From contig CALLRW010000002.1 in NCBI GenBank assembly GCA_938014215.1, positions 8,904-72,903 on the forward strand: DNA of 64,000 nucleotides. Reading direction: 5' to 3'. Below are positions 2,550 to 60,540 of this stretch, piece after piece. Both the position numbers and the translations under genes were made by a program. Source of the DNA: an uncultured Alistipes sp. Lineage in GTDB: Bacteria; Bacteroidota; Bacteroidia; Bacteroidales; Rikenellaceae. How positions within the stretch are numbered: position 1 is the stretch's first letter; every line of letters begins with the position of its first letter. The notes beneath the pieces were generated by a model. It searched no databases. It was given only the letters and a program-made list of their open reading frames with translations, and was not told the DNA's origin.

Positions 2550-3485
2550 ATGGAAAACAAACAGGGATACGATCCTTCGGAATTCGAAGACGACGACTTC
2601 TCGACGCCGCAGCCCGATGCCGGAAAGTCCATCCGCGGCTATCGCATCGTCATCATCATCCTCTCGGTCATCCTGGTGGCTATCTCGGCCCTCTACTTCG
2701 GCATCCACCGCCAGCAGATGCTCGACAACGAACTGCTGCGCGCCGACCGCGACTCGATCCAGAACGATCTGGGCCGGCTGATGGAGGATTACGACAACCT
2801 CCAGATCTCGAACGACTCGATCTCCCGCGGCCTCGATATCGAACGCGAACGCGCCGACTCGCTCATGACCCGCCTGAAGAAGGAGCGCTCGTGGAACCTG
2901 GCCAAAATCAAACAGTACGAGAAGGAGGTCGGCACGCTGCGTACCATCATGAAGGGCTACGTCCGCCAGATCGATTCGCTCAATACGCTCAACAAACAGC
3001 TCATCAAGGAGAACGTCGGCTACCGCAAGGAGATCTCCACGGCCCGTCTGCGCGCCGAAATGGCCGAAGAGAAGGCCGCCGAACTCGACAACAAGGTCAA
3101 GGTCGGAGCCGTACTCCGCGCCCGCGACATCCGTCTGACGGCCCTCAACGACCGCAGCAAACCCGTCTCGCGCGTGAAGAACGCCTCGCGTCTGCGCGTC
3201 GACTTCGTCCTCTCGGCCAACGAACTGGCTACGCCCGGAAACCGTGCCGTCTACGTGCGGATCACCTCGCCCGACGGCTATGTGCTCACCACCGAACAGA
3301 TGCCGACCTTCGAATTCGAGGGCGAACGGCTCAGCTATTCGGCCATGCGTGAGGTCGACTACCAGAATCAGGACCTCGAGGTGGGCATCTACTTCAACTC
3401 GACGGGATTCGCCGCCGGAACCTACATCGTGGAACTCTACAGCGAAGGTCGTCTGATCGGCTCCACGCAGATCGTCATGAAGTAG
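2550..3485 (+). CDS. membrane-anchored coiled-coil protein (hypothetical)
   Basis: Acidic N-terminus, a single TM segment IVIIILSVILVAISALYFGI, then a long heptad-rich region; ends 13 nt before the eptA-like gene. Confidence 0.55.
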   Translation: MENKQGYDPSEFEDDDFSTPQPDAGKSIRGYRIVIIILSVILVAISALYFGIHRQQMLDNELLRADRDSIQNDLGRLMEDYDNLQISNDSISRGLDIERERADSLMTRLKKERSWNLAKIKQYEKEVGTLRTIMKGYVRQIDSLNTLNKQLIKENVGYRKEISTARLRAEMAEEKAAELDNKVKVGAVLRARDIRLTALNDRSKPVSRVKNASRLRVDFVLSANELATPGNRAVYVRITSPDGYVLTTEQMPTFEFEGERLSYSAMREVDYQNQDLEVGIYFNSTGFAAGTYIVELYSEGRLIGSTQIVMK

Positions 3486-3498
3486 TTCCCCGCAAGGC

Positions 3499-5313
3499 AT
3501 GAAGCTGCGACACCTGTGCTGTCGGCCCGAAAAGGTCGGCAGCACTTTTTCTCGACTGCTGCGCCCGATCGGCGAGAATCCCGGATTCTTCCTCTTCGCG
3601 GCCCTCGTCCCCACACTCCCCGACATCCTCTACGCCGTCAGCCGCGAGATGACCTTCTTCGTCTGGCGGAATCTGATTCTGGCCCTGTTGCTCTCGTTCT
3701 TCCGTGCCTATGTCCTCTCGGCCCCGCTCCTGCTGCTCCGCCGGCAAAGAGCCTCGGGCGAGGAGTCGACCGTGCGCCGGATCCTCCGCAACCTTTACGT
3801 CTCGGCCCTGCTGCTCATCCTCGGCGCGGCCTCCTATGCCGAGAGTTTCCTCCAGCTCCGGTTCGGAACCCTCTGCTCGGCATCGGTCATCCAGGTCCTC
3901 TGGGAGACCGACAGGCAGGAGAGCACCGAATTCCTGAAGACCTACTGCGCCTCGACAACCTTCGTGCTGCTGACGCTCTTCTTCGTCCTGCTCATCGCCG
4001 GATACGTGATGCTGCGGCGCCATGCCCCTCGTTTCCACCTCCGCAGCCGCGTGCTGCGCTCGACACTGGGAGTGCTGCTGCTCATCGGGCTCGGCATCTC
4101 CGTCAGCCGGATCCAGATCTTCGGCAAAATGCTGCTCACACGACACGACGCCCCCGCCATCTCGGCCCCGAGCACCCCGATCTCCACCTTCGAACGCATC
4201 CACACGGCCCTGGCGGCGAACAACTTCTCGCCCGAACGGGCCCAGCGGCTGCTGCAGATGCTCGAATCGGCCCGCGTGGAGAGCTGCTCGTTCCGTTCGC
4301 CGACGATCGTCGTGATCATCGGCGAGTCGTTCAACAAGCACCACTCGAGCCTCTACGGCTACGGAATGCCGACCAATCCGCGGCTCGCCGAACGGCTCGA
4401 ACGCGGCGAACTCTACCGGCTGAACGATGTCGTCTCACCCGCCAACCTCACCACCTCGGTCCTCAACCAGATCTTCTCGCCGGCCAGTCTCGACGCCGGG
4501 CAGCGCTGGGACGAGGCGCCGCTCTTCCCGGCCCTCTTTCTGAAGGCCGGCTACGAGACCTTCCATCTGGACAACCAGGCCGCCGGTACGGTGACCAATT
4601 TCCACGACCTCGGGCTGAAGAACCTCTTCAACGCCCGCAGCAACAGCCTCCTCTTCACGGGGGTCAATCCGCGGCGCTATCCGCTCGACATGGAGCTGAT
4701 CGGGGAGTATGACCGGATCGTTCCGACGGGCGTGAAGGCCGAGCTGACCCTCTTCCACCTGATGGGGCAGCACGTCCACTACAACAACCGCTTCCCGCCC
4801 GAAGAGGCCTTCTTCACCCCCGAATCCTACGACCGCCCCGATCTGAACAGCCGCCAGAAGCAGATCCTGGCCGACTACGACAACGCCACGCGTTACAACG
4901 ACCGGGTGGTCGACGCCATGATGGAGCGCTTCGCCGACCGCGAAGCCATCGTGATCTACCTCCCGGACCACGGCGAGGAGATGTTCGACTACCGCGACCA
5001 GTTCGGCCGCACCTACACGCCGCTTACGGCCGGCATCTGCCGCTATCAGTTCGAGATCCCGTTCCTGATCTGGATGTCGGACTCCTACCGCGAACGGCAC
5101 CCCGATGTCGTGGCTCAGGTCGTCCGGGCCGCCGACCGGCGCTTCTCGTCGGACGATCTGCCCCATCTGCTGTTCGATCTGGCCGGGATCCGCTGTCCGT
5201 GGTTCGACCCCACGCGGAGCCCCCTCAACGACCGTTTCGACAACACCCGGCCACGGCCCCTGCTGCTCGGATACGAACCCGCCGGCGACTACGACACGCT
5301 GATCCGCGAATAG
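3499..5313 (+). CDS. phosphoethanolamine transferase (EptA/sulfatase-family, lipid A/LPS modification)
   Basis: N-terminal multi-TM region followed by a sulfatase/alkaline-phosphatase-fold signature TIVVIIGESFNKHHSSLYGYGMPTNPRL; length ~600 aa. Confidence 0.75.
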   Translation: MKLRHLCCRPEKVGSTFSRLLRPIGENPGFFLFAALVPTLPDILYAVSREMTFFVWRNLILALLLSFFRAYVLSAPLLLLRRQRASGEESTVRRILRNLYVSALLLILGAASYAESFLQLRFGTLCSASVIQVLWETDRQESTEFLKTYCASTTFVLLTLFFVLLIAGYVMLRRHAPRFHLRSRVLRSTLGVLLLIGLGISVSRIQIFGKMLLTRHDAPAISAPSTPISTFERIHTALAANNFSPERAQRLLQMLESARVESCSFRSPTIVVIIGESFNKHHSSLYGYGMPTNPRLAERLERGELYRLNDVVSPANLTTSVLNQIFSPASLDAGQRWDEAPLFPALFLKAGYETFHLDNQAAGTVTNFHDLGLKNLFNARSNSLLFTGVNPRRYPLDMELIGEYDRIVPTGVKAELTLFHLMGQHVHYNNRFPPEEAFFTPESYDRPDLNSRQKQILADYDNATRYNDRVVDAMMERFADREAIVIYLPDHGEEMFDYRDQFGRTYTPLTAGICRYQFEIPFLIWMSDSYRERHPDVVAQVVRAADRRFSSDDLPHLLFDLAGIRCPWFDPTRSPLNDRFDNTRPRPLLLGYEPAGDYDTLIRE

Positions 5314-26794: not shown

Positions 26795-26866
26795 GCCGAA
26801 TTAGCTCAGCGGTAGAGCACTTCACTCGTAATGAAGGGGTCCCGAGTTCAAATCTCGGATTCGGCT
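26795..26866 (+). tRNA. tRNA-Thr (anticodon CGT)
   Basis: Manual cloverleaf: acceptor GCCGAAT/ATTCGGC, D-arm GCTC-AGCGGTA-GAGC, anticodon arm CTTCA-CTCGTAA-TGAAG (anticodon CGT), variable loop GGGTC, T-arm CCGAG-TTCAAAT-CTCGG; no encoded CCA. Confidence 0.85.
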
Positions 26867-26871
26867 CTCAA

Positions 26872-26909: not shown

Positions 26910-26923
26910 CGTATCTGAACCGT

Positions 26924-26949
26924 CTGCCGACGATCGGCAGGCGTTTTTT
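26924..26949 (+). terminator. second, back-up terminator after the tRNA
   Basis: CTGCCG-acga-TCGGCAG followed by gcgTTTTTT. Confidence 0.5.
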
Positions 26950-27125
26950 GTTGCCGGAGAGCGATCCGGACCGCAAAGTCTGCATTCCCGATCCCGAAAA
27001 GATGGAACGAACGGCCGTTCGCCTCAGAGACCGGATGCGACGCGGGCCCCGCCGGTCCGAACAGACAAGCCCTCCTTCCAACGCCGCTTCCGACCGGCCT
27101 CCCGAGACACAAAGCCTTCCCGAGA

Positions 27126-27165
27126 CAAAAAAGAGGCAGCGAGAAGTTCAACTTCCCGCTGCCTC
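27126..27165 (-). terminator. rho-independent terminator of the five-gene lipoprotein operon (minus strand)
   Basis: On the minus strand: GGAGGCAGCG-ggaagttgaacttct-CGCTGCCTC-TTTTTTG. Confidence 0.6.
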
Positions 27166-27185
27166 CATTTACGTGAAAGGGCAAC

Positions 27186-28067
27186 CTACATGGGCATGGA
27201 CGAGATCCGTGCCGAGGTTGTCGATGCCGCGGCGCGGTTCAGACGGATCTCGAACCGGTAGAAGCGGCCCCCTTCCAGCAAAAGCTCGCTGTCGGGAACA
27301 TACAGAAATGTTTCGCCCTCGAGCGCAATCTCGAACAGCGTCTCTCCCGCCGGGAGCGTCTGCGGAACGACAAGCAGCCGCATCGGTTCGGTCGCATTGC
27401 CCGCCACGACAGCTCCGTTGCCGGAGGGGATCATGTCGACAGGCGTGTCGGCCCGGCTAGTCAGACCACTGCCCAGATCGAATTCGCACGAACTCAGCAC
27501 CTGCTTCACCGTAACCGTCGCACCGGCCAGCTCATCCGCCGAGGTAAAGCCTTCGCCGGGCTGCAGCACCACGTCGAGACGCGACATGCGATGGGCAAAG
27601 GTCAAAACCACCGGATCATCCGTCGGCGAGACATTCTGCCGCACGGCACTCATCAGATCGCTGTTCGTATAGTTCCGTCCGACGCTCTGATCCGGCTCCA
27701 CAGTGAAGACAAAGCTCCGTCCCTGGGTGAAATCCTCCCGGTAGGGGTAATAGGCATAGAGATCGACCGCCTGCTCGGGATACTTCACCGTCGACATCTC
27801 GACCCCCTCGGCCGTCTGCGTACAGAGCCCGTTGTTGAAATAGCGCACCCCATCAAGCGACGGTGCTTCGTCCCCCGTACGGTTCAGTACGACCAGTCCG
27901 AACTGATCCCCCTGTTCAAAGGCAAGATCCGTAGCCCGGGTGGCTGCCTCGACACGCGTTGTCAGGCTGAGTGTCGGACGCCCGTCCATCAACGCCTCAT
28001 CTTCCCGGGAACAGCCGGTCGCCAACGCCAGCAGACCGACCCAACATAGTATAAGTCCGTTTTTCAT
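27186..28067 (-). CDS. fimbrillin-like (pilin-fold) surface lipoprotein, short paralog without a FISUMP domain
   Basis: Lipoprotein signal LLALATGCS; conserved LYAYYPY motif; 19 nt downstream of the preceding paralog. Confidence 0.65.
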   Translation of the reverse strand: MKNGLILCWVGLLALATGCSREDEALMDGRPTLSLTTRVEAATRATDLAFEQGDQFGLVVLNRTGDEAPSLDGVRYFNNGLCTQTAEGVEMSTVKYPEQAVDLYAYYPYREDFTQGRSFVFTVEPDQSVGRNYTNSDLMSAVRQNVSPTDDPVVLTFAHRMSRLDVVLQPGEGFTSADELAGATVTVKQVLSSCEFDLGSGLTSRADTPVDMIPSGNGAVVAGNATEPMRLLVVPQTLPAGETLFEIALEGETFLYVPDSELLLEGGRFYRFEIRLNRAAASTTSARISSMPM

Positions 28068-28086
28068 TGTTTTCTCGTTTTTCTGA

Positions 28087-29670
28087 TTAATCCTTTACGC
28101 AGCGTACCGAGCAACCGGTCTCCTTGCCCCACGAACTGCCTGTCGTCAGCGCCTGATCCGTAGCATCGAGACGTGCATAAGGTGCCGACAGCGGCGACAG
28201 CGAAGCCGTATTCGTCGTCCACCAGGTCGCCTTGGATCCCAGCGTCTCGAAGCCGTTCCACTTGCGGGCTCCGCCCGGCAGGGCCGTAAAACCGTAAGTG
28301 TCGGACCCCTGATACTCCGGTCGGGTGTCGCCCCACGTATCGCACCAGCCCTCGGTCGACTTCAGTACCACACCGGCATTGCCTCCCAGGTAGGTGTTCA
28401 GCACCTCCCACTCGGCCACCGAAGGCACGTGCCACCCCTCGGGGCAGAGCTTGCCCGTATGGGCCGCATGCCAGTTGTAGAGCAGGCCGTAGCGCTCGCC
28501 GTTCGCCGGATCGTTCTCATACATGCAGCAGGCCGGCTCCTCGGAGTTCTCGCAGGCCGCCCAGGCATCCTGATCCTCCAGCCAGGCGATGGGCGATCCG
28601 TCGTTGAAGTTCCGCACCCGCAGATTGGCCCCCAGCCACTGCTGCGAACCGATGCGTACAACGGGATACTCGTTGCCATCGATATCCCGGACAACGCGCG
28701 CATCCTCGTCCGGATCGATCTCCACGAGCGTCTCGTCCGACGAAGAGCCCGTCGTCCAATCCTCGATCACCGGCATGAGGGCAACCTCCTCGCCCTGGGA
28801 CGTACGGTTGATCGTCAGCGTAAAGGTGTAGCGCTTCCCCGGCTCGAAGGTCAGATCGCGCTCCGTCGTGCAGCGGAAGTTGCGCGTGCCGATCCGGACG
28901 TTGAACAGATAGGAGCGGGCTGCGACCTCCTGCGGCGGAATGATGGCCACGACGCCGACGGCCCGATCCTCCGTCGTGCGGAACGTGCCGTGGGGCTCGA
29001 TATTCACCGCAATCGAGGGTTGCGACACCTCGCCGCTCGCAAAATCGACCTGCGCCACCTGCGCCACATTCATGACGCGGACCTGCGCCCCGAGCAGCCC
29101 GGACGGATCGCTGTAGCCCGTACCGGGTTTCAGTTCGAAGTCGAGGCGGGACATCAGCCGCTTGAAATCGAGCCGGATCGCCTGCTCCGTACGGGCCGTC
29201 TGCGGCGCACGGGCCAGCATGCGGTCGCTCGTGCGGAAGGCCTCGTCGTCCCGCTGATCAATCGCCACGGAGATCTCGTAACTCGACTTGTCGGCACTCA
29301 GCCCCTTTTCGTCGTACGGGAAATAGGCGTAGAAATCCGAGGCCCCCGTATACTCCGTCGGCCAGAAACAAGGGGTGGATCCGGTGAGGGTGCCCATCGT
29401 CATGACCAGCTCCTTGTTGTTGATATACCGCGTTCCGACGAGGGCCGCCTGCGGATCGGAGGTCGACTCGACACAATACAGACCGACGGCATCCCCCTCC
29501 TCGAAGGCCGTATCCGTCGCCCGCGTACAGGGGACGATCGTCGGTTCGAAACGCAGTTCCAACTCCCCGGAGACATCGGGACGCCCCGTCGCATCGTCCG
29601 TTCCGTCGCATCCGGCCGCTCCGGCCAGCAGGGCGACACAGGCTGCATAAATCGCTATATTCGTTTTCAT
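28087..29670 (-). CDS. surface lipoprotein: fimbrillin-like N-terminal domain plus a C-terminal FISUMP (Fibrobacter succinogenes major paralogous) domain
   Basis: Signal LLAGAAGCDG; FYAYFPY; C-terminal DIDGNEYPVVRIGSQQWLGANLR...GLLYNW...LCPEGWHVPS...SVRCVKD. Confidence 0.75.
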   Translation of the reverse strand: MKTNIAIYAACVALLAGAAGCDGTDDATGRPDVSGELELRFEPTIVPCTRATDTAFEEGDAVGLYCVESTSDPQAALVGTRYINNKELVMTMGTLTGSTPCFWPTEYTGASDFYAYFPYDEKGLSADKSSYEISVAIDQRDDEAFRTSDRMLARAPQTARTEQAIRLDFKRLMSRLDFELKPGTGYSDPSGLLGAQVRVMNVAQVAQVDFASGEVSQPSIAVNIEPHGTFRTTEDRAVGVVAIIPPQEVAARSYLFNVRIGTRNFRCTTERDLTFEPGKRYTFTLTINRTSQGEEVALMPVIEDWTTGSSSDETLVEIDPDEDARVVRDIDGNEYPVVRIGSQQWLGANLRVRNFNDGSPIAWLEDQDAWAACENSEEPACCMYENDPANGERYGLLYNWHAAHTGKLCPEGWHVPSVAEWEVLNTYLGGNAGVVLKSTEGWCDTWGDTRPEYQGSDTYGFTALPGGARKWNGFETLGSKATWWTTNTASLSPLSAPYARLDATDQALTTGSSWGKETGCSVRCVKD

Positions 29671-29688
29671 AACTGTTCCGTTTGAAGA

Positions 29689-31269
29689 TTAAAAATCGTG
29701 CACGCAGCGAACCGAAAGCCCGCTGTGACGGTCTCCGACATACTGATCCAGCGCATCGCCCTGCGTCCGCAGACCGTAATAGTAGGTCATCTCGGCGGAG
29801 AAGTCACTGTCGCTCCACCAGTAGCCGTTCGTCCCGGCATAATAGAATTTCGCCACCGTGGGGTCGTTCGGATCCGCCCGCAGCGAACCGCCCGGAAGCC
29901 CTCCGAAGCCCGTCTCGTCGGTTGCCGACTCGCCGTCGGGCCATCCCTGAAGGGCCTTCAGCTGCGGAGCCACGCCGAGCCACGAACCGAAATCGTTCTG
30001 CGTGCCTCCCAGGGCGGCTCCCAGCGCATCCCAATCCTCAACGGTCGGGACATGCCACCCCTCGGGGCAGAGCTTGTGCGTACGGACCGCCGCCCGGTTA
30101 TAGAGCAGACCGTAGCGTTCGCCGTTCGCCGGATCGTTCCCGTACGCGCAGCAGGCCCCCTCTTCGGATGCCATCCAGACCGTGCCGTCGGAGATCTGCT
30201 GGATCGGCGTGCCGTCGTTGTAGCGGGTCGTCCGCAGGTTGGCATCCATCCAGTACTGACGGCCGATGTGCAGAATGCCGTAGCTGTTGCCGTCGCCATC
30301 CTCCACGCTCGTCCCCGACGGAGGCAGGATCTCGTCGCCGTTCAGCGACTCATCGCCGCCCGGCACCCAGTCGGTGACCGTGACGTCGGTCTGCACGGTG
30401 ACCCCCTCGAACGACTGGCTCAAAGTGAGGGTCAGCACGGCACGCCGGCCCCCCTGCAGATCCAGCTCCGAGGAGGGACGATAGTCAAACCGTTCGTCGC
30501 CCGCGAGGATCGAGACGAACGTCGTTCCGGCGGCGATCCGCTGCGGAATGACGATCGCGGAGAGCCCCGTCAGGAGACCGTCCTGCAACGTCAGTTCGCC
30601 ATGCGGCGTCACGTCGACGGCCGCACCGGAAGCGGTGCAGCTACCCGTCTCGAAGGAGCAGGCCCCCTCGGTCCGGATCCCCTGCAGGGTGACCTGCGCC
30701 GCGGCAAGGTCGTCCGCCGTATAGCCGTAACCGGCCTTCAGGGCGATGTCCACACGGCTCATCGCATGGGTGAACTCCATCGGCACACTCCCCCCGACGG
30801 CCTCATAATCGGTCACCTTGCCCAGCAGCAGGTCGCAGTCCGCAAAGTCGGCATCGGCTCGCTGGTCGGCGGCAAGCGTCAACGGAAGTTCAACCGAACC
30901 CGCCTCGAGGGCCGTCTCACGATACGGAGCGTAGGCATACAGATCGAACCGGCTCCCGCCGCCCGCCGGGAAGGTGATCTCCGGCGTCGAGAGGTAGAGA
31001 TCCCCCGAACGGGCAAATGCCACGTTCGAAAAGAGCCGTTCGCCGGCGAGCGCCTCCGCCCCCGCAGCCTCCTTCTGAACGACGTAAAGACCGAACGATT
31101 CGGGCGCAACGTCCGTCTGACCGCTCGCGGCCAACGGGCGGACGGCAATCCGGCCGGGTGCAACATCCGGAGCCGACGACTCCTCGTTCGTCTGGCATCC
31201 GCCGGCAAGCAGGAGCAGACTGAGGCTCCCGCTGCAAACTATTTGATGGATTCTCTTCATCTTGGTCAT
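29689..31269 (-). CDS. surface lipoprotein: fimbrillin-like N-terminal domain plus a C-terminal FISUMP domain
   Basis: Signal LLLAGGCQT; LYAYAPY; DGDGNSYGILHIGRQYWMDANLR...GLLYN...LCPEGWHVPT...SVRCVHDF. Confidence 0.75.
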   Translation of the reverse strand: MTKMKRIHQIVCSGSLSLLLLAGGCQTNEESSAPDVAPGRIAVRPLAASGQTDVAPESFGLYVVQKEAAGAEALAGERLFSNVAFARSGDLYLSTPEITFPAGGGSRFDLYAYAPYRETALEAGSVELPLTLAADQRADADFADCDLLLGKVTDYEAVGGSVPMEFTHAMSRVDIALKAGYGYTADDLAAAQVTLQGIRTEGACSFETGSCTASGAAVDVTPHGELTLQDGLLTGLSAIVIPQRIAAGTTFVSILAGDERFDYRPSSELDLQGGRRAVLTLTLSQSFEGVTVQTDVTVTDWVPGGDESLNGDEILPPSGTSVEDGDGNSYGILHIGRQYWMDANLRTTRYNDGTPIQQISDGTVWMASEEGACCAYGNDPANGERYGLLYNRAAVRTHKLCPEGWHVPTVEDWDALGAALGGTQNDFGSWLGVAPQLKALQGWPDGESATDETGFGGLPGGSLRADPNDPTVAKFYYAGTNGYWWSDSDFSAEMTYYYGLRTQGDALDQYVGDRHSGLSVRCVHDF

Positions 31270-31273
31270 AGGT

Positions 31274-32827
31274 TTAATTTCGGTAACGGATGCAGCGGAC
31301 CGAATATCCGGTGCGCTGTTGCGGCGAGGTAATCAGCACGGTCGGACGGTTGTAGTAGAGATAGAAGCCGTTGGCCTGCGAGGCGTTCACCGCCGTACTG
31401 CTCCACCAGTAACCGTAGGACTCGAAGTTCCAGTAGGTTCCGTCGTCCTCGCGCGAACCGCCGGGAAGGCCGTTGAAACCGCTGCTGTTTGTTCCCTGGT
31501 AGGCCGGGTTCTCATCGCCCTTGTACTTCCAGCCGGAGGTGCTCTTCAGCTTGTCTCCGGCCACGTCCTCGCCGCCCAGGAGCTCGATCATCATCTGAAT
31601 CTCCTCGACCGACGGCACGTGCCAACCCTCCGGACACAGCTGTCCGGTCGCCACCGCATAATAGTTATACAACAGTCCGAAACCGGCAATCTGCGCCGGG
31701 TCGTTGTTCTGGTAGCAGTAGGCGACCGTCTTGTCGGCGGCGTTCTCGCCCCAGACCGTCGCATCCTCGATGCACGTAATCGGGGTGCCGTCGTTCAGCT
31801 TCGTGGTGCGCAGATTCTCGGCCATCCAGTACTGCGTCCCGATCTTGACCACCGGATAGCTGTTACCCTCGATGTCCGTCACGTTCCCGGGCATGTCGTC
31901 CCCCGGCTCGACCGTCTCGTCGATCGTCAGGCCGTCCGTCCAGTCCCGTTCGGTAACCGTCACCGAGATCGTCGGCCCCTCGACCGTCACGGCCACCTCG
32001 TAGCGTTTGCCCGAGCGGAGCTCCAGCGCCTCGCCCAACGAGTAGGCGTTCGTCGAGTTCCCGAGCTGGAGGCGGATCACCTCGTCCGCAGCCTCGATCC
32101 GCTGCGGAACCGCAATCAGCGACAGTCCGGAGAGCCGTTCGCCGTCGGAGGTCAGCGTTCCGTAGGGCCGTATCTCCCGGGGATTCGACGAAGCCGTCAC
32201 ACGCCCCTCGGCGAAATCCACCTCCGCCGCGGTCCGAAGAAGCATCGTCACCCGGGCATCCGCCCATCCGGACAGCGCCTCTCCGTCCGCTCCGGCGAAG
32301 GAGAGATCGATGCGCGAGAACTGCCGCTGGAAATCCATCTCGACCGCTCCCTGCCTGCCGGCCTCGACACGTGCCGTCGCCACCATCAGGTCAGACGCGG
32401 CAAAGCGCGCAGCATCCGACTGATCCTCCGCCACGGAGACGGCCGCCACAGTCGTCCCGGAGCCAAGCATCTGCGCGGCATAGGGCGCATAGGCCACAAA
32501 GGTGCTCTCCGTATCCTGATACGTCAGGGTGGAGGGCCCTTCGAACAGTTGACCCGTGCAGGTCAGTCGGGCATTGTCAATATACCGGGGTGCATCGGCC
32601 GTGAAAGAGCCCTCGACGGCATATAGGCCCAGAGTGGCCCCCTCCTCAAAGCGATCCCCGGCGGTTGAACCGTCCCACGAGACCATCTTCCCTTCGATGC
32701 GGATCGGCTCGGCCGCGACAGGCTCTGTCGAATTGTCCGAACCGTCACCGCATGCCGTCACACCGACAAGCAGTGCGCCTGCACCCGCAAGGGCAAACAG
32801 CCGCTGATAGTTGTTATGTCGTTTCAT
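31274..32827 (-). CDS. surface lipoprotein: fimbrillin-like N-terminal domain plus a C-terminal FISUMP domain
   Basis: Signal LLVGVTACGD; FVAYAPY; DIEGNSYPVVKIGTQYWMAENLR...GLLYNY...LCPEGWHVPS...SVRCIRYRN. Confidence 0.75.
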   Translation of the reverse strand: MKRHNNYQRLFALAGAGALLVGVTACGDGSDNSTEPVAAEPIRIEGKMVSWDGSTAGDRFEEGATLGLYAVEGSFTADAPRYIDNARLTCTGQLFEGPSTLTYQDTESTFVAYAPYAAQMLGSGTTVAAVSVAEDQSDAARFAASDLMVATARVEAGRQGAVEMDFQRQFSRIDLSFAGADGEALSGWADARVTMLLRTAAEVDFAEGRVTASSNPREIRPYGTLTSDGERLSGLSLIAVPQRIEAADEVIRLQLGNSTNAYSLGEALELRSGKRYEVAVTVEGPTISVTVTERDWTDGLTIDETVEPGDDMPGNVTDIEGNSYPVVKIGTQYWMAENLRTTKLNDGTPITCIEDATVWGENAADKTVAYCYQNNDPAQIAGFGLLYNYYAVATGQLCPEGWHVPSVEEIQMMIELLGGEDVAGDKLKSTSGWKYKGDENPAYQGTNSSGFNGLPGGSREDDGTYWNFESYGYWWSSTAVNASQANGFYLYYNRPTVLITSPQQRTGYSVRCIRYRN

Positions 32828-32840
32828 AAACCGATCGTTT

Positions 32841-34997
32841 TTAGTTGACTTTTACACAACGAACATACATGCCCGAGGTCATGTAATAAGAGTCGATATA
32901 GGGCGAATTGCTCAGATACAGGTAATAGGGCGTGTCGCCGCTCTTGTAGGAGGTCCAGAACCCGGCTTCCGTCATATACCAGTAGTAGCAGGAAGCGATG
33001 CCTCCGGGCAGCGCCCCGAAGCCCGAAGCATTGGTCGGATTGTAATAATCCCACCGGCTGTCGGGGGCCATCAGATCCGCGGCCGAGGGCACGGCGTCAA
33101 GCAGCGACTGCGTCTGATCCCAGTCGGGAAGGCTCCAACCCTCGGGACAAAGTTTGCCCGTATCGACCGTATAGTAATTGTAGAGAAGGCCGTAGGTCGG
33201 ACGGTTATCCGGATCGTCCATGAAATCGCAGGCCGCCGGCGAAGTCTTCTCGTCCCACGACATATCGTTGCCCAGGGCTATCGGAATCTCCGTGCCGTCC
33301 GTCAGGTGGAGCGTCCTCAGATTGGCCGCCATCCATGTCAAACCTCCGATCTCGACAACGGGATACTCGTTGCCGTCGACATCCGTCACCGAGGTCGGAG
33401 CCGGATCCGGTTCCGGTTCGACGGCCGAGTCATCCTCCACACACCGTACCGACATGGCGACCCGCTTGTAATGGGTATCCATATAGGAGTACATGCTCAG
33501 ATAGAGGTAGGAGGCCGGGAAGCTCTGCGTATCGTCGAAGGTGGAGCTCCAAAAATAGGCGTCGCCGAACAACCAGCTGTTGTCGAACAGCATGCCCGCC
33601 GGCAGAGCGCTGAATCCGGTCGTATTGGTCGGTTCATACATGCTGCTCCAGTTTTCGTCGGGCGCCATCAGCGAATAACTCCCCTTCATCGTGGAGAAGG
33701 GCAGCGTCTCCAGCTCCTCGCGCGAGGGGACCTTCCACCCCTTCGGGCAGAGGTTGCCCGGCTCGACCGCATAGAAGTTGTAAAGCAGACCGTAACGGTC
33801 GCGGTAGTCGGCGTTGTTCTCCGGGGCGCAGGCCGCCGGCGAAGTCAATGCAATCCACTCCTCCGTACCTCCCTCAACAACCGGAATCTCCGTTCCATCG
33901 TTGTAATGCGTCGTGCGGAGGTTGGAGGTCAACCATCGTTTTCCCGCGATTTCGACTACCGAATACTCGTTTCCGTCGGCATCGAGAACCGTCTCACCCG
34001 ACGGTTCGGGACGATTGGCATCACCCACGATGACGTCCCCTTCCTGCCACTCTGCAATCTGGGTGCTCACACGAAGTGTCGGACCCTGGGATGTCATTCC
34101 GATCGTTGCGGTAAAGAGATGACTTCGACCCGATTCGAACGTAAAGTCCGAACCCGGTTTATAGGCCAATGTCTTCCCCCGGAATGTAAAATAGAGAACC
34201 GATTCACCAGCCAGGCGGGTCTGAGGAACCACGATGGCCGAAAGCCCCGAAAGCATGCCGTCACTCGCCTTCGACAGATGTCCGAAAGGCTGGATGTCGG
34301 ACACATCGGAAAGCTGATCGATCTGTCCTGCATCAACATCATAACGCGCTGTCGTTGAGAATGATTTCAGCTGCACATCCACATCAAGCAACTCATCGGC
34401 CGTAACCCCTTCACCCGCCTTCACCTGAATCAGCATCTGGCTCAGCACATGGCGAAAAGAGACTGGAACGGCCTCTCCGTCGGGTATTACCTCACGGGCA
34501 ACGGCTACCAGCCGGTCTGAGGTCATTCGGGCCTGCGCATCCCGTTGGTCCACAGCCACCCCGACTGCAAGCGTCGAGGAACCTGCATCAAAACCAACCG
34601 CATCATAGGGATAGTAGGCATAGAATGTATTGGGGGTCGTCGCATCCGGGAAATAGGCCGTGGCCGTCGCAATGAAACAACCGTCACGATATTCAAACTT
34701 CACGTTATCCTCCTAACGGACACCTGAAAGAGGCTGCTCTGCGCCGTTCTCCCATGGAACAACAGTCAATCCGATGGCGTCTCCCTGATCAAAAGCGGTT
34801 CCGGATACACGAGTCATGATACTCGGTGCCAACGTAATGCGGAGTTTCGAATCGAAATCCGCCACATCCGATTCCGCGGTTGTACACGACGGGGCCATCA
34901 GCAGGCCGACCGCCGACCAAAGCACAAAGCCGTACAGGGAGAGACGGGTTGTCGCTCGACACCTCGCTCTCCTGGGGTTTGGGTACAATTTATCCAT
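32841..34997 (-). pseudogene. fimbrillin-like lipoprotein with two tandem FISUMP domains, interrupted by a single in-frame TAG (34713-34715); either a pseudogene or a sequencing/strain variant
   Basis: The N-terminal fragment (34713-34997; signal LLMAPSCTT) and the C-terminal fragment (32841-34703, with no signal peptide of its own; FYAYYPY; two DxDGNEYxVVEI...VRCV modules) share one frame: ...PLSGVR-TAG-EDNVKFEY... Confidence 0.55.
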
Positions 34998-35221
34998 AGT
35001 TAATAAAAGATTATATGAGGTGTTTGATTAAAAGAGGCAAAGATTAAATACATTCTATCAGTTTATAATATATTATAACATTAAACCGATAAAACGAAAA
35101 CAAATTTATACAAAACCAGCTATTAAACAAATTTTTTTCTTGTAAAATTCCGCCTTTTTATATTTTTTTCATACATTTAAACTCGAATCAAGACACGAAT
35201 GCCACCCACAAATCCAATACT
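34998..35221. promoter_or_regulatory. AT-rich (~25-30% GC) divergent promoter region between the lipoprotein operon (-) and the M6 protease gene (+)
   Basis: 224 bp of A/T-rich sequence with homopolymer runs and TTATA/TATAA-type motifs, flanked by two divergently starting, secreted-protein genes. Confidence 0.45.
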
Positions 35222-37807
35222 ATGATTCGAACTGTCAGCCCCGCATGGCTTGTCATCGGCCTTCTCTTTGCAATGCTGTTAACCGTTCAACCAACTACGG
35301 CACAATCCAATACGGCTACCGTCAGGCTGCCCGACGGATCCTCCCTGCCGGTGCAGATCCATGGAGATGCACGGTTTCATTACGAAACGACGATCGACGG
35401 CTATCCCGTCGTTCAGGGACCCGACGGATTCTATTATTACCTGACTGACTCTCAGGGGCGCTCCGTTCGCAGTGCCGTCCGGGTATCCGCCCGCAACCGC
35501 CGAACCGCCGAAGAGCTCCGGCTGCTGGCAACACTCCCCCGCGGAGTCGCCGCATCGGCCCGGCTCCGCACCCCGCAAAGTCAAACCCGTGCCGGTCTGG
35601 AGACGGGGTTCCCCACGACCGGAGACGTACGGTCGCTGGTTATCCTGGTCAATTTCAACGACGTGACCTTCACTACAGCCGGCCCGCAGCGCGCCTTTGA
35701 ACGCATGCTCAACGAAAAGGGTTACAGCGACAACGGCGCCATCGGAAGTGCCCGCGACTACTATCTCCAGAACTCCGGAGAACGGTTCCGTCCGACCTTC
35801 GATGTCGTCGGCCCATTCACGCTGGACCACCCTGTCGCCTATTACGGCGCCAACACGGACTATAGAGATCCCAACGCCGAAAAGATGATTGTCGATGCCT
35901 GCCGCAAGGCCGCTGCAGCCGGGGTTGACTTCGCGCAGTATGATCTCGACAATGACGGGAAAATTGACAACGTCTTCGTCTATTATGCCGGATACAACGA
36001 ATCCGAAGGCGGCGGTTCGAATACCGTCTGGCCCCATCGGGGCGAAGTATCCGACTCGGGCGAAACCTTCAACGGGAAGACGCTCTGCGTCTATGCCTGC
36101 ACCTCGGAGCTGAGCGGCTCGGAAGGGTTTGACAGCCGCATGGCCGGCATCGGAACCTTCTGCCACGAATTCGGCCACGTCCTCGGATGGCCCGACTTCT
36201 ACGATACCGACGGCAGCGACTCCGGAACGGGCAGCGGCATCTTCAACTGGTCGCTCATGTGCCGCGGCAGTCTGAACGACGGCGGACGGATCCCGCCCGC
36301 CCTGACGGCCGTGGAGCGCATGCTGGCAGGATGGCTCACCCCGACCGTACTGAGTCGATCGGGCGATTACACGCTGCAGCCGATCCAGGAGAACGAGGCC
36401 TGTCTGATCAGAACCGACACGGAGGGGGAGTTCTTCCTCCTGGAGAACCGCCAACTGACGGGGTGGGACCAGGCCCTCAAGGGGCACGGGCTGCTGATCT
36501 ACCACGTCGACCGCTCCCAACGGCTGGTCGAAGGCTACACGGCTCTCGACCGCTGGATCTACAACATTCCCAACAACATCGCGGCCCACCCCTGTCTACG
36601 TCTGATCACGGCCCGACCCGATTCGGGAGAGGGGTACGAAGCCTTCATGCCCTATCCCGGCCAGACCGGCAACCGCGAATTCTCGGCCTCGAGCCGTCCG
36701 GCAGCCCGCAGCTGGTCCGGAGCCCCGCTCCCCGCCGAGGTGTACGACATCACCGAAACGACGGACGGAACCATCCGCTTCTCGGTGCGCATGGCCGCCG
36801 GCAGCATCGAAGAGCTCCGCATCGAGGGCCGCGAACGGGCCATCGTCGGGGATACGGTGCAGATGCGGGCCGTGATCTCGCCCGAAGGGGCATCCGGTGA
36901 TCTGGAGTGGAGCAGCGACAACGAAGCCGTGGCCACGATCGATGTCCGGAGCGGAACGGTTACCTGTCTGAAGAGCGGCGAGACGACCATTCGGGTCACC
37001 GCCCCCTCGACGGGTGCCTCTGCCGGATTCCAGCTCTCGGTCGTGGAGGGGACGCTGCTGCGCGGCCGCGTCTGGAACAGCGCGAAGAGTCCGCTGGAAG
37101 GGGTCCGCATCGAACTGAGCGACCAGTCCGGTGAGTGTCTGGCCACCTTCACGAGCGATGAAGAGGGGTGCTTCGCCAGTGGCGAAAACGAGGTGTCAGA
37201 AGGGAGTTATTCGCTGCAGCTTCGCGGAGAGGGGTATCCCGCACAGGCTGTCGCCGCACGGATCGGGGCGGGAACAACACGGCTTGATCTGACGCTGCAA
37301 CAGTTGGAGGAGATGGATCGCGGTGATGCCGATTTCGAGGTCTCCGTACAACCGTTCCAGAACTCGGTCTACATCGACTGGAGCAGCTCCGACGCAACCC
37401 GCTGGACGGTGGAGTGGCGCCCGATGGAGACGGCCTTCTACGCCGGATCCCGCAGCGTGGAAACGCCGCAGATCGATATCGACGGATTGTCGCCCCGGTC
37501 GGAATACGCCGTCCGGATCACCGAATCCGACGGAGCCGAATCAAAATACAGGATGGTCTACTTCTCAACGGCCGAGCCTCTGGGACGCTTTACCGGCATG
37601 GCCCTGCAGGCGGAGTACGAGACCGACACGCCGGTACTGCTGAAAGCCGTCAACATCCCGGACGGTGCCCGCCAGGAGTGGTTTATCGACGGAGAGGCCG
37701 TAAGCCAAAACAGCGTCCGACTCCCCGCCGGAGAGCATGAAGTCGAACTGCACATCTCGACCTCCGGCCACACCGAAATCATCACGAAATACATCACGGT
37801 AAAATAA
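35222..37807 (+). CDS. secreted M6-family (immune inhibitor A/InhA-like) zinc metalloprotease with Ig-like (Big_2) and beta-sandwich domains; possible T9SS cargo
   Basis: Signal peptide; HEFGHVLGWPDFYDTD (HExxH...D, InhA-like); Big_2-like block AVISPEGASGDLEWSSDNEAVATIDVRSGTVTCLKSGETTIRVTA; carboxypeptidase-regulatory-like LRGRVWNSAKSPLEGVRIEL; C-terminal beta-rich tail ending ...ITKYITVK. Confidence 0.8.
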   Translation: MIRTVSPAWLVIGLLFAMLLTVQPTTAQSNTATVRLPDGSSLPVQIHGDARFHYETTIDGYPVVQGPDGFYYYLTDSQGRSVRSAVRVSARNRRTAEELRLLATLPRGVAASARLRTPQSQTRAGLETGFPTTGDVRSLVILVNFNDVTFTTAGPQRAFERMLNEKGYSDNGAIGSARDYYLQNSGERFRPTFDVVGPFTLDHPVAYYGANTDYRDPNAEKMIVDACRKAAAAGVDFAQYDLDNDGKIDNVFVYYAGYNESEGGGSNTVWPHRGEVSDSGETFNGKTLCVYACTSELSGSEGFDSRMAGIGTFCHEFGHVLGWPDFYDTDGSDSGTGSGIFNWSLMCRGSLNDGGRIPPALTAVERMLAGWLTPTVLSRSGDYTLQPIQENEACLIRTDTEGEFFLLENRQLTGWDQALKGHGLLIYHVDRSQRLVEGYTALDRWIYNIPNNIAAHPCLRLITARPDSGEGYEAFMPYPGQTGNREFSASSRPAARSWSGAPLPAEVYDITETTDGTIRFSVRMAAGSIEELRIEGRERAIVGDTVQMRAVISPEGASGDLEWSSDNEAVATIDVRSGTVTCLKSGETTIRVTAPSTGASAGFQLSVVEGTLLRGRVWNSAKSPLEGVRIELSDQSGECLATFTSDEEGCFASGENEVSEGSYSLQLRGEGYPAQAVAARIGAGTTRLDLTLQQLEEMDRGDADFEVSVQPFQNSVYIDWSSSDATRWTVEWRPMETAFYAGSRSVETPQIDIDGLSPRSEYAVRITESDGAESKYRMVYFSTAEPLGRFTGMALQAEYETDTPVLLKAVNIPDGARQEWFIDGEAVSQNSVRLPAGEHEVELHISTSGHTEIITKYITVK

Positions 37808-37824
37808 AACAGTCTGCATCGAAC

Positions 37825-38262
37825 ATGAAACGATCCATCCTCCATATCCTCGCGCAACTCTTCGGAATCGTCCTCGTCGCAAGCCTTCCGACGGCCTGCG
37901 CCAACAACGGCGACATGGGCTCGAACTCTCCCGCCTGTGAAGCCTTCCTTGCCTCCGCCGTCCAATACGGCATCTACGGAGGCGGGACCCCGGTGCGGAT
38001 CTTCCAACGAACAGAAGATCAGATCGTCCGCGACAGCGAAGGAACCACGCTCCGCATTCAGGATACGGAGCAGATCAGCGTATTGAACTGTACCTTCTCG
38101 GCCCGTCCGCAGGTCGGAGCAGCCGTCACGGTACGATACGAAGGGGTGGGGATTCCGCTGACGGCCGGCAGCGCCGAATTTCAGGCTCTGAAGAGCGAAG
38201 GAACGCGAATCTGGCTCTGGAACGAAAAGTTGGGGATCGGTATCGTGGCCGACAACCGTTGA
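37825..38262 (+). CDS. small lipoprotein (hypothetical), 18 nt downstream of the protease gene
   Basis: Lipobox LVASLPTAC; 145 aa; codon bias typical of this genome. Confidence 0.6.
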   Translation: MKRSILHILAQLFGIVLVASLPTACANNGDMGSNSPACEAFLASAVQYGIYGGGTPVRIFQRTEDQIVRDSEGTTLRIQDTEQISVLNCTFSARPQVGAAVTVRYEGVGIPLTAGSAEFQALKSEGTRIWLWNEKLGIGIVADNR

Positions 38263-49108: not shown

Positions 49109-50223
49109 TCGCAACGCATCCATACAGCGTCCCGGCTCAGACCTCCGCCGGGGCCGATACGCTGCACGGCAGCCCGGCAACAACCGCTGCGGGCCAACAT
49201 CGGGTCCCGCAACGGAACCGGACCGATACGCTGCACGGCAGCCCGGCAACAACCGCTGCGGGCCAACATCGGGTCCCGCAACGGAACCGGACCGATACGC
49301 TCGGAGCCATACGGAGTGATTCGCTCGCTGCCGGAGCCGACTCCGCCGCACGGATGCAGGGCGATACGCTCCGCCTGCGGGGCGATTCGGTCTGCTTCAT
49401 GCAGGGTGATTCGCTGGTCTACGCCCGGATCGGGGAGTGGCCGCACGAGGCCGATTCCATCCAGAAAGGCCCCTGGCGCGATACCACCGCAACGGCCCTC
49501 TTCGGCAGCGAGTCCTGCACGGTACAGCCCGCCGGAATCGAACGCCCCGTCGGCGAATCGCTCACCGACAACGCCGTCTTCCAGGGGTTCGTCCTGCTGC
49601 TGGCCGCCACCTACGCCACGCTCCTATACCGCAATCTGGGCGATGTCAAGACACTCCTGAGCCGCATCTTCCGCGATACGGCATCCAGCAAACGCATCGC
49701 CGAAGAGCCCGGCAGCAGCGGATTCTCCCGGTTCCTGAACGTCACAACGGCCATCGGCATGCTCTTCATGGGGGTCATCGTCGTCAAGTACGGCGACACG
49801 CTCCTCTCCGCCGAACTCGGCCGGGCCCTCTCTCACGGAGCCGTACTCGCACTGAGCCTGCTCGCCACGCTGGCCTGGTGCGGCGTGGTGATCTTCCAGG
49901 CCGTGATCATCCGCATCATCGCGGCCGTCACCCTCTCGCAGCCATTCATCGCCCAACTCTCCCTGCTGCGAAGAACCTACTTCGCCCTCGGGGTCATCAT
50001 CACCTCTCCCACGCTGCTCCTCTTCGCCCTCTGCCCCCGCGGAACCGGCGGCGCATGGTTCATCGTCGGAGCCGTCGAACTGATCATAACGGCCGTCCTG
50101 TACCTTCGGGAATCGCTGAATCTCTTTATTTCTAAAAAAATTTCGATTTTGCTCTGGATTTTGTACCTTTGCACCGTGGAAGTCTTCCCAATCAGCCTAT
50201 TATGGCTCCTTGCGGCAAGATGA
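49105..50223 (+). CDS. DUF4271-like multi-TM membrane protein with a repetitive N-terminal extension
   Basis: ATGA overlap with the kinase stop; the C-terminal ~220 aa is polytopic (typical DUF4271); the N-terminus contains a 23-aa perfect repeat. Confidence 0.6.
   Translation: MIATHPYSVPAQTSAGADTLHGSPATTAAGQHRVPQRNRTDTLHGSPATTAAGQHRVPQRNRTDTLGAIRSDSLAAGADSAARMQGDTLRLRGDSVCFMQGDSLVYARIGEWPHEADSIQKGPWRDTTATALFGSESCTVQPAGIERPVGESLTDNAVFQGFVLLLAATYATLLYRNLGDVKTLLSRIFRDTASSKRIAEEPGSSGFSRFLNVTTAIGMLFMGVIVVKYGDTLLSAELGRALSHGAVLALSLLATLAWCGVVIFQAVIIRIIAAVTLSQPFIAQLSLLRRTYFALGVIITSPTLLLFALCPRGTGGAWFIVGAVELIITAVLYLRESLNLFISKKISILLWILYLCTVEVFPISLLWLLAAR
49156..49293 (+). repeat. perfect 69-bp tandem duplication (2.0 copies plus a 9-bp partial third) inside the DUF4271 coding region
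   Basis: 49156-49224 is identical to 49225-49293 (GATACGCTGCACGGCAGCCCGGCAACAACCGCTGCGGGCCAACATCGGGTCCCGCAACGGAACCGGACC); in frame, 23 codons. Confidence 0.9.
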
Positions 50224-60204: not shown

Positions 60205-60370
60205 AAGGAGGGGCGGCAAGGCTTTCCCCGTTCCGAGAACCCGAAAAGAAGAGGTTCGCCCGCTGGGGGGGGGAGTGAATGTCTCCCGGCGCAGACAGCG
60301 GGGAAGATTTACAAGGTATCGGAGGTGAAGGATTGCCGGCAAAAGAGGAAGGGGAGTCGGCCAACGGAGG

Positions 60371-60540
60371 GGTGCCGACAAGAGGGAGAAGAATTCCACC
60401 AAAGGAAAGGCGCTGACAAAAGAGAGAAGGAGACCACCAAAGGAAAAGCGTTGACAAAAGAGAGAAGGAGATCACCAAAGGAAAGGCCGACAGGAGGGAG
60501 GAGAAACCCGCCAAAGAAAGAGGTGCCGACAAAAGAAACG
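60371..60540. repeat. purine-rich non-coding tandem repeat, about 4.5 degenerate copies of a 37-38-nt unit (…GCCGACAAAAGAGAGAAGGAGAYCACCAAAGGAAAG…)
   Basis: Units begin at about 60371, 60397, 60434, 60472 and 60507; the period is not a multiple of 3; lies between rlmN and the thioredoxin-like gene. Confidence 0.6.

Follow-up and report, generated by a model that had tools for sequence, protein, structure and literature searches.

A probable type V pilus-type operon with C-type-lectin-like heads and a conserved neighbouring M6 protease gene in a gut Alistipes

Here, we describe a block of five lipoprotein genes together with two neighbouring genes of an uncultured Alistipes sp. (contig CALLRW010000002.1), which lies in a stretch of 64,000 nucleotides called the window throughout. 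The five genes follow each other on the minus strand and are numbered by their coordinates, gene 5 being the first gene of the row. All five encode a pilin-like domain and genes 2-5 encode in addition one or two C-terminal heads, which belong to the "Fibrobacter succinogenes major paralogous" (FISUMP) family. The features of the locus are the following:

27166->27132, minus strand: intrinsic terminator ending the operon, with a 16-bp stem (9 G-C pairs), a 3-nt loop and TTTTTTG
27186-28067, minus strand: gene 1, open reading frame (ORF) of 293 amino acids (aa)
28087-29670, minus strand: gene 2, ORF of 527 aa
28090..28701, minus strand: FISUMP head of gene 2 (C-type-lectin-like; modelled alone)
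29689-31269, minus strand: gene 3, ORF of 526 aa
29692-30312, minus strand: FISUMP head of gene 3
31274-32827, minus strand: gene 4, ORF of 517 aa
31277-31894, minus strand: FISUMP head of gene 4
32841-34997, minus strand: frame of gene 5, 719 codons with one internal stop
34713-34715, minus strand: W96* (TGG->TAG) in gene 5, an in-frame stop
35131->35101, minus strand: Bacteroidetes-type promoter motif TTTG-N19-TAnnTTTG, a perfect match located ~100 nt before the start codon (ATG) of gene 5
35222..37807, plus strand: M6 (InhA-like) metalloprotease (TIGR03296, PF05547, HEFGH), divergent from the pilin operon
37825..38262, plus strand: 145-aa lipoprotein with the lipobox LPTAC, predicted to be co-transcribed with M6

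The spacing between genes 1-5 amounts to 19, 18, 4 and 13 nt. An earlier note on this DNA had described a row of five genes with gaps of 4-19 nt. The gaps and the coordinates of genes 1-4 stand, but gene 5 is not one open gene owing to its internal TAG. The AT-rich hub that the note had placed at the start of the operon is found at 34998-35221 with a GC content of 25% vs 61% for the window, and the strong terminator at the operon end is likewise present, 20 nt past the stop codon of gene 1. When up to one mismatch is allowed, the promoter motif has six matches in the window vs 0.84 expected by chance, and no second match lies within 27000-35000. Since there is one promoter motif, one terminator and only short gaps in between, a single operon, as proposed earlier, is the simplest reading at the level of the sequence. 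Phase variation by promoter inversion was considered and rejected, since no inverted repeats surround the promoter hub. A gene for tRNA-Thr(CGT) is located at 26795-26867 on the plus strand, ~320 nt past the stop codon of gene 1, and has its own terminator-like hairpin (26921-26943).

On the level of protein families, Mfa_like_1 (PF13149) was found by Pfam above cut-off in all five products, with E values of 1e-31 to 1e-44. Genes 2-5 furthermore match PF09603 (Fib_succ_major) with 119-189 bits (curated cut-off 33.9) and NCBIfam TIGR02145 with 106-147 bits (curated cut-off 41.65). The E values are 1.4e-42 for PF13149 in gene 1; 5e-44 for PF13149, 4e-34 for PF09603 and 3e-31 for TIGR02145 in gene 2; 9e-41 for PF09603 and 2e-35 for PF13149 in gene 3; and 3.5e-42 and 2.7e-31, respectively, in gene 4. 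Gene 5 contains two PF09603 stretches (33432-33977 and 32844-33398). These profile searches confirm the fimbrillin-like and FISUMP domains which had been assigned by eye, and the aromatic motif [LF][YV]AY[YFA]PY on which the former had been based is present as quoted. The FISUMP blocks which had been called invariant are conserved approximately but not strictly, gene 3 having DGDGNSYGILHIG and gene 4 DIEGN. The lipoprotein-type signals quoted before are all there and are predicted by motif reading, the lipoboxes being LATGC, GAAGC, LAGGC, GVTAC and MAPSC. Acidic residues follow each lipobox Cys, a stretch which we take to resemble the surface-export signal of Bacteroidetes lipoproteins.

In RefSeq, the exact proteins carry the accessions WP_308501146-WP_308501152, which are consecutive and assigned to an uncultured Alistipes sp.; they are named "fimbrillin family protein", "FISUMP domain-containing protein", "M6 family metalloprotease domain-containing protein" and "hypothetical protein". 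The view of an unplaced system therefore has to be given up, since family names exist and the block falls into the type V pilus (FimA/Mfa) superfamily. A literature search retrieved no study of the block, none on FISUMP and none joining M6 proteases and fimbrillins in Alistipes. The intact gene 5 product (P0001) has no relative above 30% identity among 185,579 species-representative genomes, the best one reaching 30%. This suggests that the block is accessory, in line with its earlier description as the least housekeeping-like part of the window. An apparent 267-aa variant of gene 1 in L006 was dismissed as a start choice of the gene caller, the DNA being identical.

The pilin assignment was followed up on the level of structure. 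By sequence, gene 1 matches PDB entry 4k4k with an E value of 3.7e-17. An AlphaFold2 model of gene 2, built from an alignment of 33 sequences, has a mean pLDDT (predicted local distance difference test) of 84 and consists of two domains of high confidence, ~36-306 and 324-527, with a disordered linker in between (307-323). With the pilin part of this model, Foldseek retrieved the solved type V pilins 4k4k (E 3e-16), 3ufi, 3sy6, 4eps, Mfa2, Mfa3, Mfa4 and FimA, all with a probability of 1.00 and E values of 3e-16 to 1e-6. Judged from sequence profiles and from this model, the five lipoproteins share the two-sandwich (transthyretin-like) pilin fold. In genes 2-5, a conserved strand pair (..V.L.P.I.DW..) precedes the linker and the head.

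The FISUMP domain had been introduced as a domain of unknown function. A FISUMP profile search of the PDB sequences revealed no true relative. Its structure can be placed by prediction: modelled alone, the head has a C-type-lectin/FGE-like fold, as seen by superposition on C-type lectin (C-Lec) proteins. In the structural comparison, it scored 9.8 with Treponema TvpA, 9.5 with PvdO, 8.4 with an FGE paralogue, 7.8 with the C-terminal domain of Legionella Lcl, 6.8 with TaqVP, 6.8 with 4EPS, 6.6 with Mtd and about 5 with intimin, invasin and dozens of animal C-type lectin domains. The nearest structures thus include variable proteins of diversity-generating retroelements (DGRs) as well as a tip pilin of B. 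ovatus (4EPS), where the superposing region is the head of that pilin. C-Lec-fold structures bind proteins as well as glycans.

Relatives of the block outside the window reveal what belongs to it. L052 and L053 share ~70% nucleotide homology with the window over 27234-38194 only, which is the region from gene 1 through the 145-aa ORF downstream of M6, and their flanking genes are unrelated. The recurrent layout consists of a Peptidase_M6 gene followed by that of a small lipoprotein and, divergently, of four Mfa+FISUMP genes followed by one headless Mfa gene (~294 aa). M6 adjoins the orthologous operon in L052/53/60/63, L054/55, L056/57 and L062, and homologs of the 145-aa lipoprotein, which has no match in Pfam or NCBIfam, are found directly downstream of M6 in 5/5 lineages. 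Gene 2 orthologs are 58% (L056/57), 41% (L054/55) and 38% (L062) identical. On sequence grounds, the operon, M6 and the 145-aa lipoprotein gene are one module of ~11 kb, present in five lineages including that of the window. The secreted protease, which had been noticed as a neighbour of the operon, is indeed present with a signal peptide, but it is a part of this module and not incidental. Across 45 Mfa_like_1 loci from species-representative genomes of Bacteroidales, a tandem of short and long Mfa_like_1 genes is the rule, and the M6 and small-lipoprotein genes are absent from all 45.

The check for presence in related genomes, suggested in the earlier note, thus reveals the module in unrelated contexts. 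The flanks differ in each lineage and the GC content of the loci ranges from 43 to 61%. For the window, no sign of a recent horizontal acquisition was found: with 61.5%, the block has the GC content of the window, there is no integrase and no repeat of the tRNA-Thr 3'-end is present at the far border. In view of the differing contexts, a transfer may nevertheless have occurred. A tRNA-Gly gene is located in L052, ~3 kb away from the opposite end of the module.

Within the module, the best-hit orthology is strictly positional: gene 5 corresponds to the first position (p1), gene 4 to p2, gene 3 to p3, gene 2 to p4 and gene 1 to p5. Orthologs are 34-70% identical, whereas the paralogs of the window share only 25-37% identity among themselves. 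This agrees with the earlier view of an old, strongly diverged family. It does not agree with an array of five variants, since each gene has a positional ortholog in four other lineages; strict orthology combined with low paralog identity indicates an old ordered set rather than interchangeable variants. Judging from the sequences, the five genes probably have distinct roles. The number of heads at p1 varies: none in L058 (330 codons), one in L054/L056/L062 (~520 codons), two in the window (719 codons) and in L063 (729 codons) and three in L052/L060 (926 codons). L058 comprises three headed genes and the headless p1 ortholog. Even within one lineage, the p1 head count differs between L060 (three) and L063 (two). 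In L054, a 583-aa tetratricopeptide repeat (TPR) gene (3283-5034) is inserted between M6 and the pilin operon, and L062 has a gap of like size at this position (~3400-5280); the window has no such gene. For the L054 TPR protein, a role in regulation or in assembly may be considered.

Anchor, stalk and tip pilins make up the type V pili. These subunits appear first as surface lipoproteins and are subsequently cut at an N-terminal loop. Tip pilins typically bear C-terminal ligand-binding, sometimes lectin, domains (PMC12632263; 10.1101/2024.11.15.621889). Genes 1, 2 and 5 display the corresponding arrangement, a predicted N-terminal strand followed by a T-R-A or T-R-V loop with the putative cleavage site after the Arg. 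The predicted sites are R44/A45 in gene 1, R50/A51 in gene 2 and R63/V64 in gene 5, and Arg/Lys is kept in the ortholog groups. The spacing of Cys21 and R50 in gene 2 mirrors that of Cys20 and R49 in Mfa1, which is cut at R49/A50 (PMC13655056). In the alignment, gene 3 has ..RPLAASGQT.. where the others have T[RK]A, and in the ortholog group of gene 4 W[DN]G..A replaces T[RK]A. Gene 1 is the sole headless subunit; it ends in the C-terminal tail ..ARISSMPM with an alternating pattern, and both this tail and the T-R44/A45 loop are kept in orthologs of 38-68% identity. From its sequence, the tail is compatible with a donor strand. By analogy, gene 1 therefore looks like a stalk or adaptor, and tip-type subunits subject to cleavage would be encoded by genes 2 and 5.

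The M6 metalloprotease scores 200 bits with TIGR03296 (cut-off 110.8, E 6.6e-59) and matches PF05547. It contains HEFGH at residue 315, matches InhA (4yu5) with an E value of 1.4e-12, and has a type I signal peptide as well as Big_2, CarboxypepD_reg and weak fn3 modules. Since its linkage is conserved, a functional coupling to the pilin operon is suggested by the sequences, and the protease might act either in pilin maturation or in processing captured material. The M6 frame is open for 43 codons upstream of ATG 35222 (35093-35221), and this longer form would overlap the promoter hub. Many members of the M6 cluster are called at 899 aa vs 861 aa, while ATG 35222 yields a normal signal peptide.

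Gene 5, the first gene of the operon, is interrupted in this strain. Its translation reads ...LSGVR*EDNVKFEY... across the TAG, which divides the gene into a piece of 94 codons with signal peptide and lipobox and an ORF of 620 aa with a GTG start and without signal peptide. The TAG is common to the window and three further assemblies (L001, L002 and L004), while L003, an assembly from another sample, has TGG (Trp) and an intact gene of 718 aa (P0001 / WP_308501150.1). Since the exact 620-aa product is recorded on 8 contigs, W96* is a real circulating allele and a sequencing error is excluded. Further truncated forms occur in the 90% cluster of gene 5, namely a pair of 125 + 561 aa, which breaks exactly after codon 125, and forms of 658 and 531 aa; the other ORFs start at Met61 or Met188. 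From these sequences, a repeated inactivation of the first subunit in natural populations is hinted at. Intact 718-aa alleles are the majority among the 15 listed members of the cluster, and the nonsense mutation is probably recent. Five relatives of ~400 aa with Mfa_like_1 only (P0249, P0251, P0254, P0255, P0012) can be aligned with gene 2 or gene 5 as far as the linker and run out-of-frame thereafter, which makes them either frameshifted pseudogenes or indel errors of metagenome assembly.

Taken together, we consider it fairly probable that the block is a type V pilus-type system (FimA/Mfa superfamily, Mfa_like_1 branch) of gut Alistipes, which displays lectin-like heads on the cell surface. 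The surface-adhesin part of the earlier note is supported by domains, lipoprotein signals and operon layout, all of them predicted. Polymerisation, ligand and protease role are what we infer within this reading. In such a mechanism, Sec would export the products, the lipobox Cys would receive the lipid and the proteins would then be flipped onto the cell surface. Subsequently, those of genes 1, 2 and 5 would be cut at the loop Arg/Lys behind the anchor strand, and a groove would open, as known from FimA and Mfa1. The product of gene 1, being headless, would donate its conserved C-terminal strand and act as stalk or adaptor, and the headed products would be tip-type adhesins, whose static lectin-like heads are directed toward gut glycan or protein ligands. 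Genes 3 and 4 may remain lipid-anchored, a proposal based on the missing cleavage Arg/Lys. The M6 protease would either mature the pilins or act on material captured by the heads. In the present strain, the nonsense mutation knocks out the first gene of this set.

A number of points weigh against a pilus. The ortholog groups of genes 3 and 4 are devoid of the cleavage-loop Arg/Lys, only one pilin is headless, and none of the five subunits combines a donor strand with the lack of both cleavage site and head, as a classic anchor does. Heads on four of five subunits are furthermore unlike fimA-E or mfa1-5, and the related locus L058 lacks both M6 and a gene 1 ortholog. Regarding the heads, Foldseek alone gave no placement, and the EPN/QPD/WND motifs for Ca2+ and sugar binding of canonical Ca2+-dependent C-type lectins occur in none of the five. 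"Lectin" is therefore a fold label only. Regarding the protease, no T9SS (type IX secretion system) sorting domain (Por_Secre_tail/TIGR04183) was detected, not even when the last 139 residues were searched at E <= 10. Thus, T9SS export of M6 was rejected, and a surface location of this protein, which has a type I signal peptide, is only putative. Finally, the pilin maturation protease reported in Bacteroides is a surface clostripain and not an M6 enzyme (PMC12632263).

Several of these points would fit a different, although rather unlikely, scenario, in which the proteins are stand-alone surface lipoproteins that do not polymerise. Here, the pilin fold would serve only as a rigid spacer between membrane and heads, and the proteins would join with M6 to capture and degrade a glycoprotein or a peptide-bearing polymer. 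The heads on four of five subunits, the missing Arg/Lys in genes 3 and 4, the lack of a separate anchor/stalk pair and the conserved M6 linkage are all in line with it, and so is L054, where the module adjoins GH123 and SusC/SusD genes. Nevertheless, the products of genes 1, 2 and 5 resemble strand-exchange pilins in their anchor strand, loop Arg/Lys and spacing (PMC13655056). In addition, it is hard to see why a spacer protein should be headless and conserve its C-terminal strand, as the gene 1 product does, and the flanks differing from lineage to lineage speak against a conserved polysaccharide-utilisation context.

A decaying locus, i.e., a pseudogenised remnant without current function, would account for the nonsense codon of gene 5 here and on at least 8 contigs, for the other truncated forms of its cluster (125 + 561, 658 and 531 aa) and for those Mfa-only relatives which resemble frameshifted Mfa+FISUMP genes. 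We regard it as very unlikely, because genes 1-4 are intact with a ratio of nonsynonymous to synonymous polymorphism (pN/pS) of 0-0.10, every gene of the module is retained in five lineages and the majority of the listed gene 5 alleles encode all 718 aa. In the comparison of the window with L003, pN/pS amounts to 0-0.16 over genes 1-5 and to 0.12 for M6. These low values identify both as constrained coding genes. In the same comparison, pS is 0.005-0.01 in genes 1-2 and 0.045-0.07 in genes 3-5, and this roughly ten-fold unevenness suggests recombination between strains within the operon.

Since Fib_succ_major/DUF1566-type domains are a recognised class of DGR targets (PMC5758913), the heads could belong to a hypervariable, DGR-diversified adhesin locus, but this is highly improbable: the 64-kb window contains no template-like repeat, the only repeats being paralogous coding segments, and no YxDD-type reverse-transcriptase motif in a plausible ORF, and among 10-15 natural alleles per gene the variation is even and low in the last ~50 residues, the usual position of the variable region (VR). 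The DGR hypothesis is thus largely refuted for the window, to which the search was confined, and the heads described here are static.

Coming back to the type V pilus-type display, a bolder version of it can be formulated, which we put forward as a doubtful proposal only. Together, the small lipoprotein, M6, the headless pilin and the four or five lectin-headed pilins of the seven-gene module could represent an undescribed, self-contained sub-type of type V pili. In it, a dedicated M6 would replace gingipain or clostripain in maturation or would be delivered to head-bound material, and the adhesive tip would be multi-headed, each position contributing a fixed subunit without redundancy.

Two further repeats of the window lie outside the module. 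A unit of 69 nt is present in two tandem copies at 49151-49288, which are 99% identical, and a purine-rich unit of 59 nt occurs in three overlapping copies at 60353-60487 with a spacing of 38 nt and 73-75% identity.

As adhesive organelles, type V pili rank first in gut and oral Bacteroidales, and to our knowledge almost nothing is known about their ligands outside Porphyromonas. Here, the module offers a compact, conserved set of four subunits with static lectin-like heads, for which ligands can be screened, and a linked M6 protease, for which a role in maturing pilins or in processing substrates can directly be tested. It also offers alleles circulating in human-gut populations in which the first subunit is naturally knocked out. 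Furthermore, the FISUMP family with its more than 50,000 representative proteins gains a concrete structural and functional setting. If the link to the protease were incidental, the operon would be one more fimbrial operon among the dozens found per Bacteroidales genome.

Among the known systems, the Fim1 locus of B. ovatus with BACOVA_04980 (3UFI) and the tip pilin BovFim1C/BACOVA_04982 (4EPS) is a close structural counterpart, at an identity to the Alistipes proteins of only ~11-19%. BovFim1C is described as a static-headed tip pilin (10.1101/2024.11.15.621889), and in the model the FISUMP head has the same fold as that head. In contrast to Fim1, the Alistipes block comprises four headed pilins in a row, FISUMP heads, a disordered linker and an M6 gene.

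The tip adhesins of Bacteroides that combine a pilin part with a C-Lec domain are surface-exposed and diversified by DGRs (10.1101/2024.11.15.621889). With three of them, BfrT, BthT and BunT, the headed Alistipes proteins share the lipobox, the pilin N-terminal part and the C-Lec head, and in genes 2 and 5 a candidate cleavage Arg corresponds to the cleavable one (10.1101/2024.11.15.621889). Like the Alistipes headed pilins, BfrT and BthT are also built from three parts including a connecting region. However, no DGR in the window, no VR and no hypervariability were found for the Alistipes heads, and they are static and chromosomal instead of being borne by an integrative conjugative element or prophage. 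The gene order differs as well, since the headed genes lie upstream of the headless gene in Alistipes, while BfrT, BthT and BunT are encoded downstream of the anchor and stalk genes.

Similar to mfa1-5 and fimA-E of Porphyromonas gingivalis, the block consists of five paralogous lipoprotein pilin genes with probably fixed positional roles, and its predicted anchor strand and putative Arg cleavage loop recall those of P. gingivalis (Cys20/R49 in Mfa1, Cys21/R50 in gene 2). Protease-dependent assembly would be a further common feature, established for the P. gingivalis pili and proposed by analogy for Alistipes. The P. gingivalis operons, unlike that of Alistipes, begin with the stalk gene, and their accessory pilins alone are located at the tip. 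The protease of P. gingivalis is an Arg-gingipain (C25) encoded elsewhere, whereas in Alistipes M6 adjoins the operon. Furthermore, the P. gingivalis pili carry no C-Lec heads, Mfa5 having a vWA domain.

With the FISUMP family (TIGR02145, PF09603), genes 2-5 share the lipoprotein signal and conserved cysteines (PMC5758913). In most FISUMP proteins, the domain is joined to fn3, T9SS sorting or other modules, or is repeated up to ~15 times. The fusion of Mfa_like_1 and FISUMP is a small subset, since ~6 of the best 150 representatives (50% identity) match in full length. The M6 protein resembles Bacillus InhA (family M6; 4YU5) in its catalytic domain with HEFGH; it differs from InhA in its Bacteroidales origin, in its Big_2, CarboxypepD_reg and fn3-like modules and in its genetic link to a pilin operon. 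As a whole, the system with its static C-Lec heads can be recognised as a variant of the tip-adhesin loci of type V pili. New with respect to the literature searched are the fixed five-position architecture with four headed subunits, the conserved coupling to M6 and a small lipoprotein, and the natural knock-outs of the first subunit.

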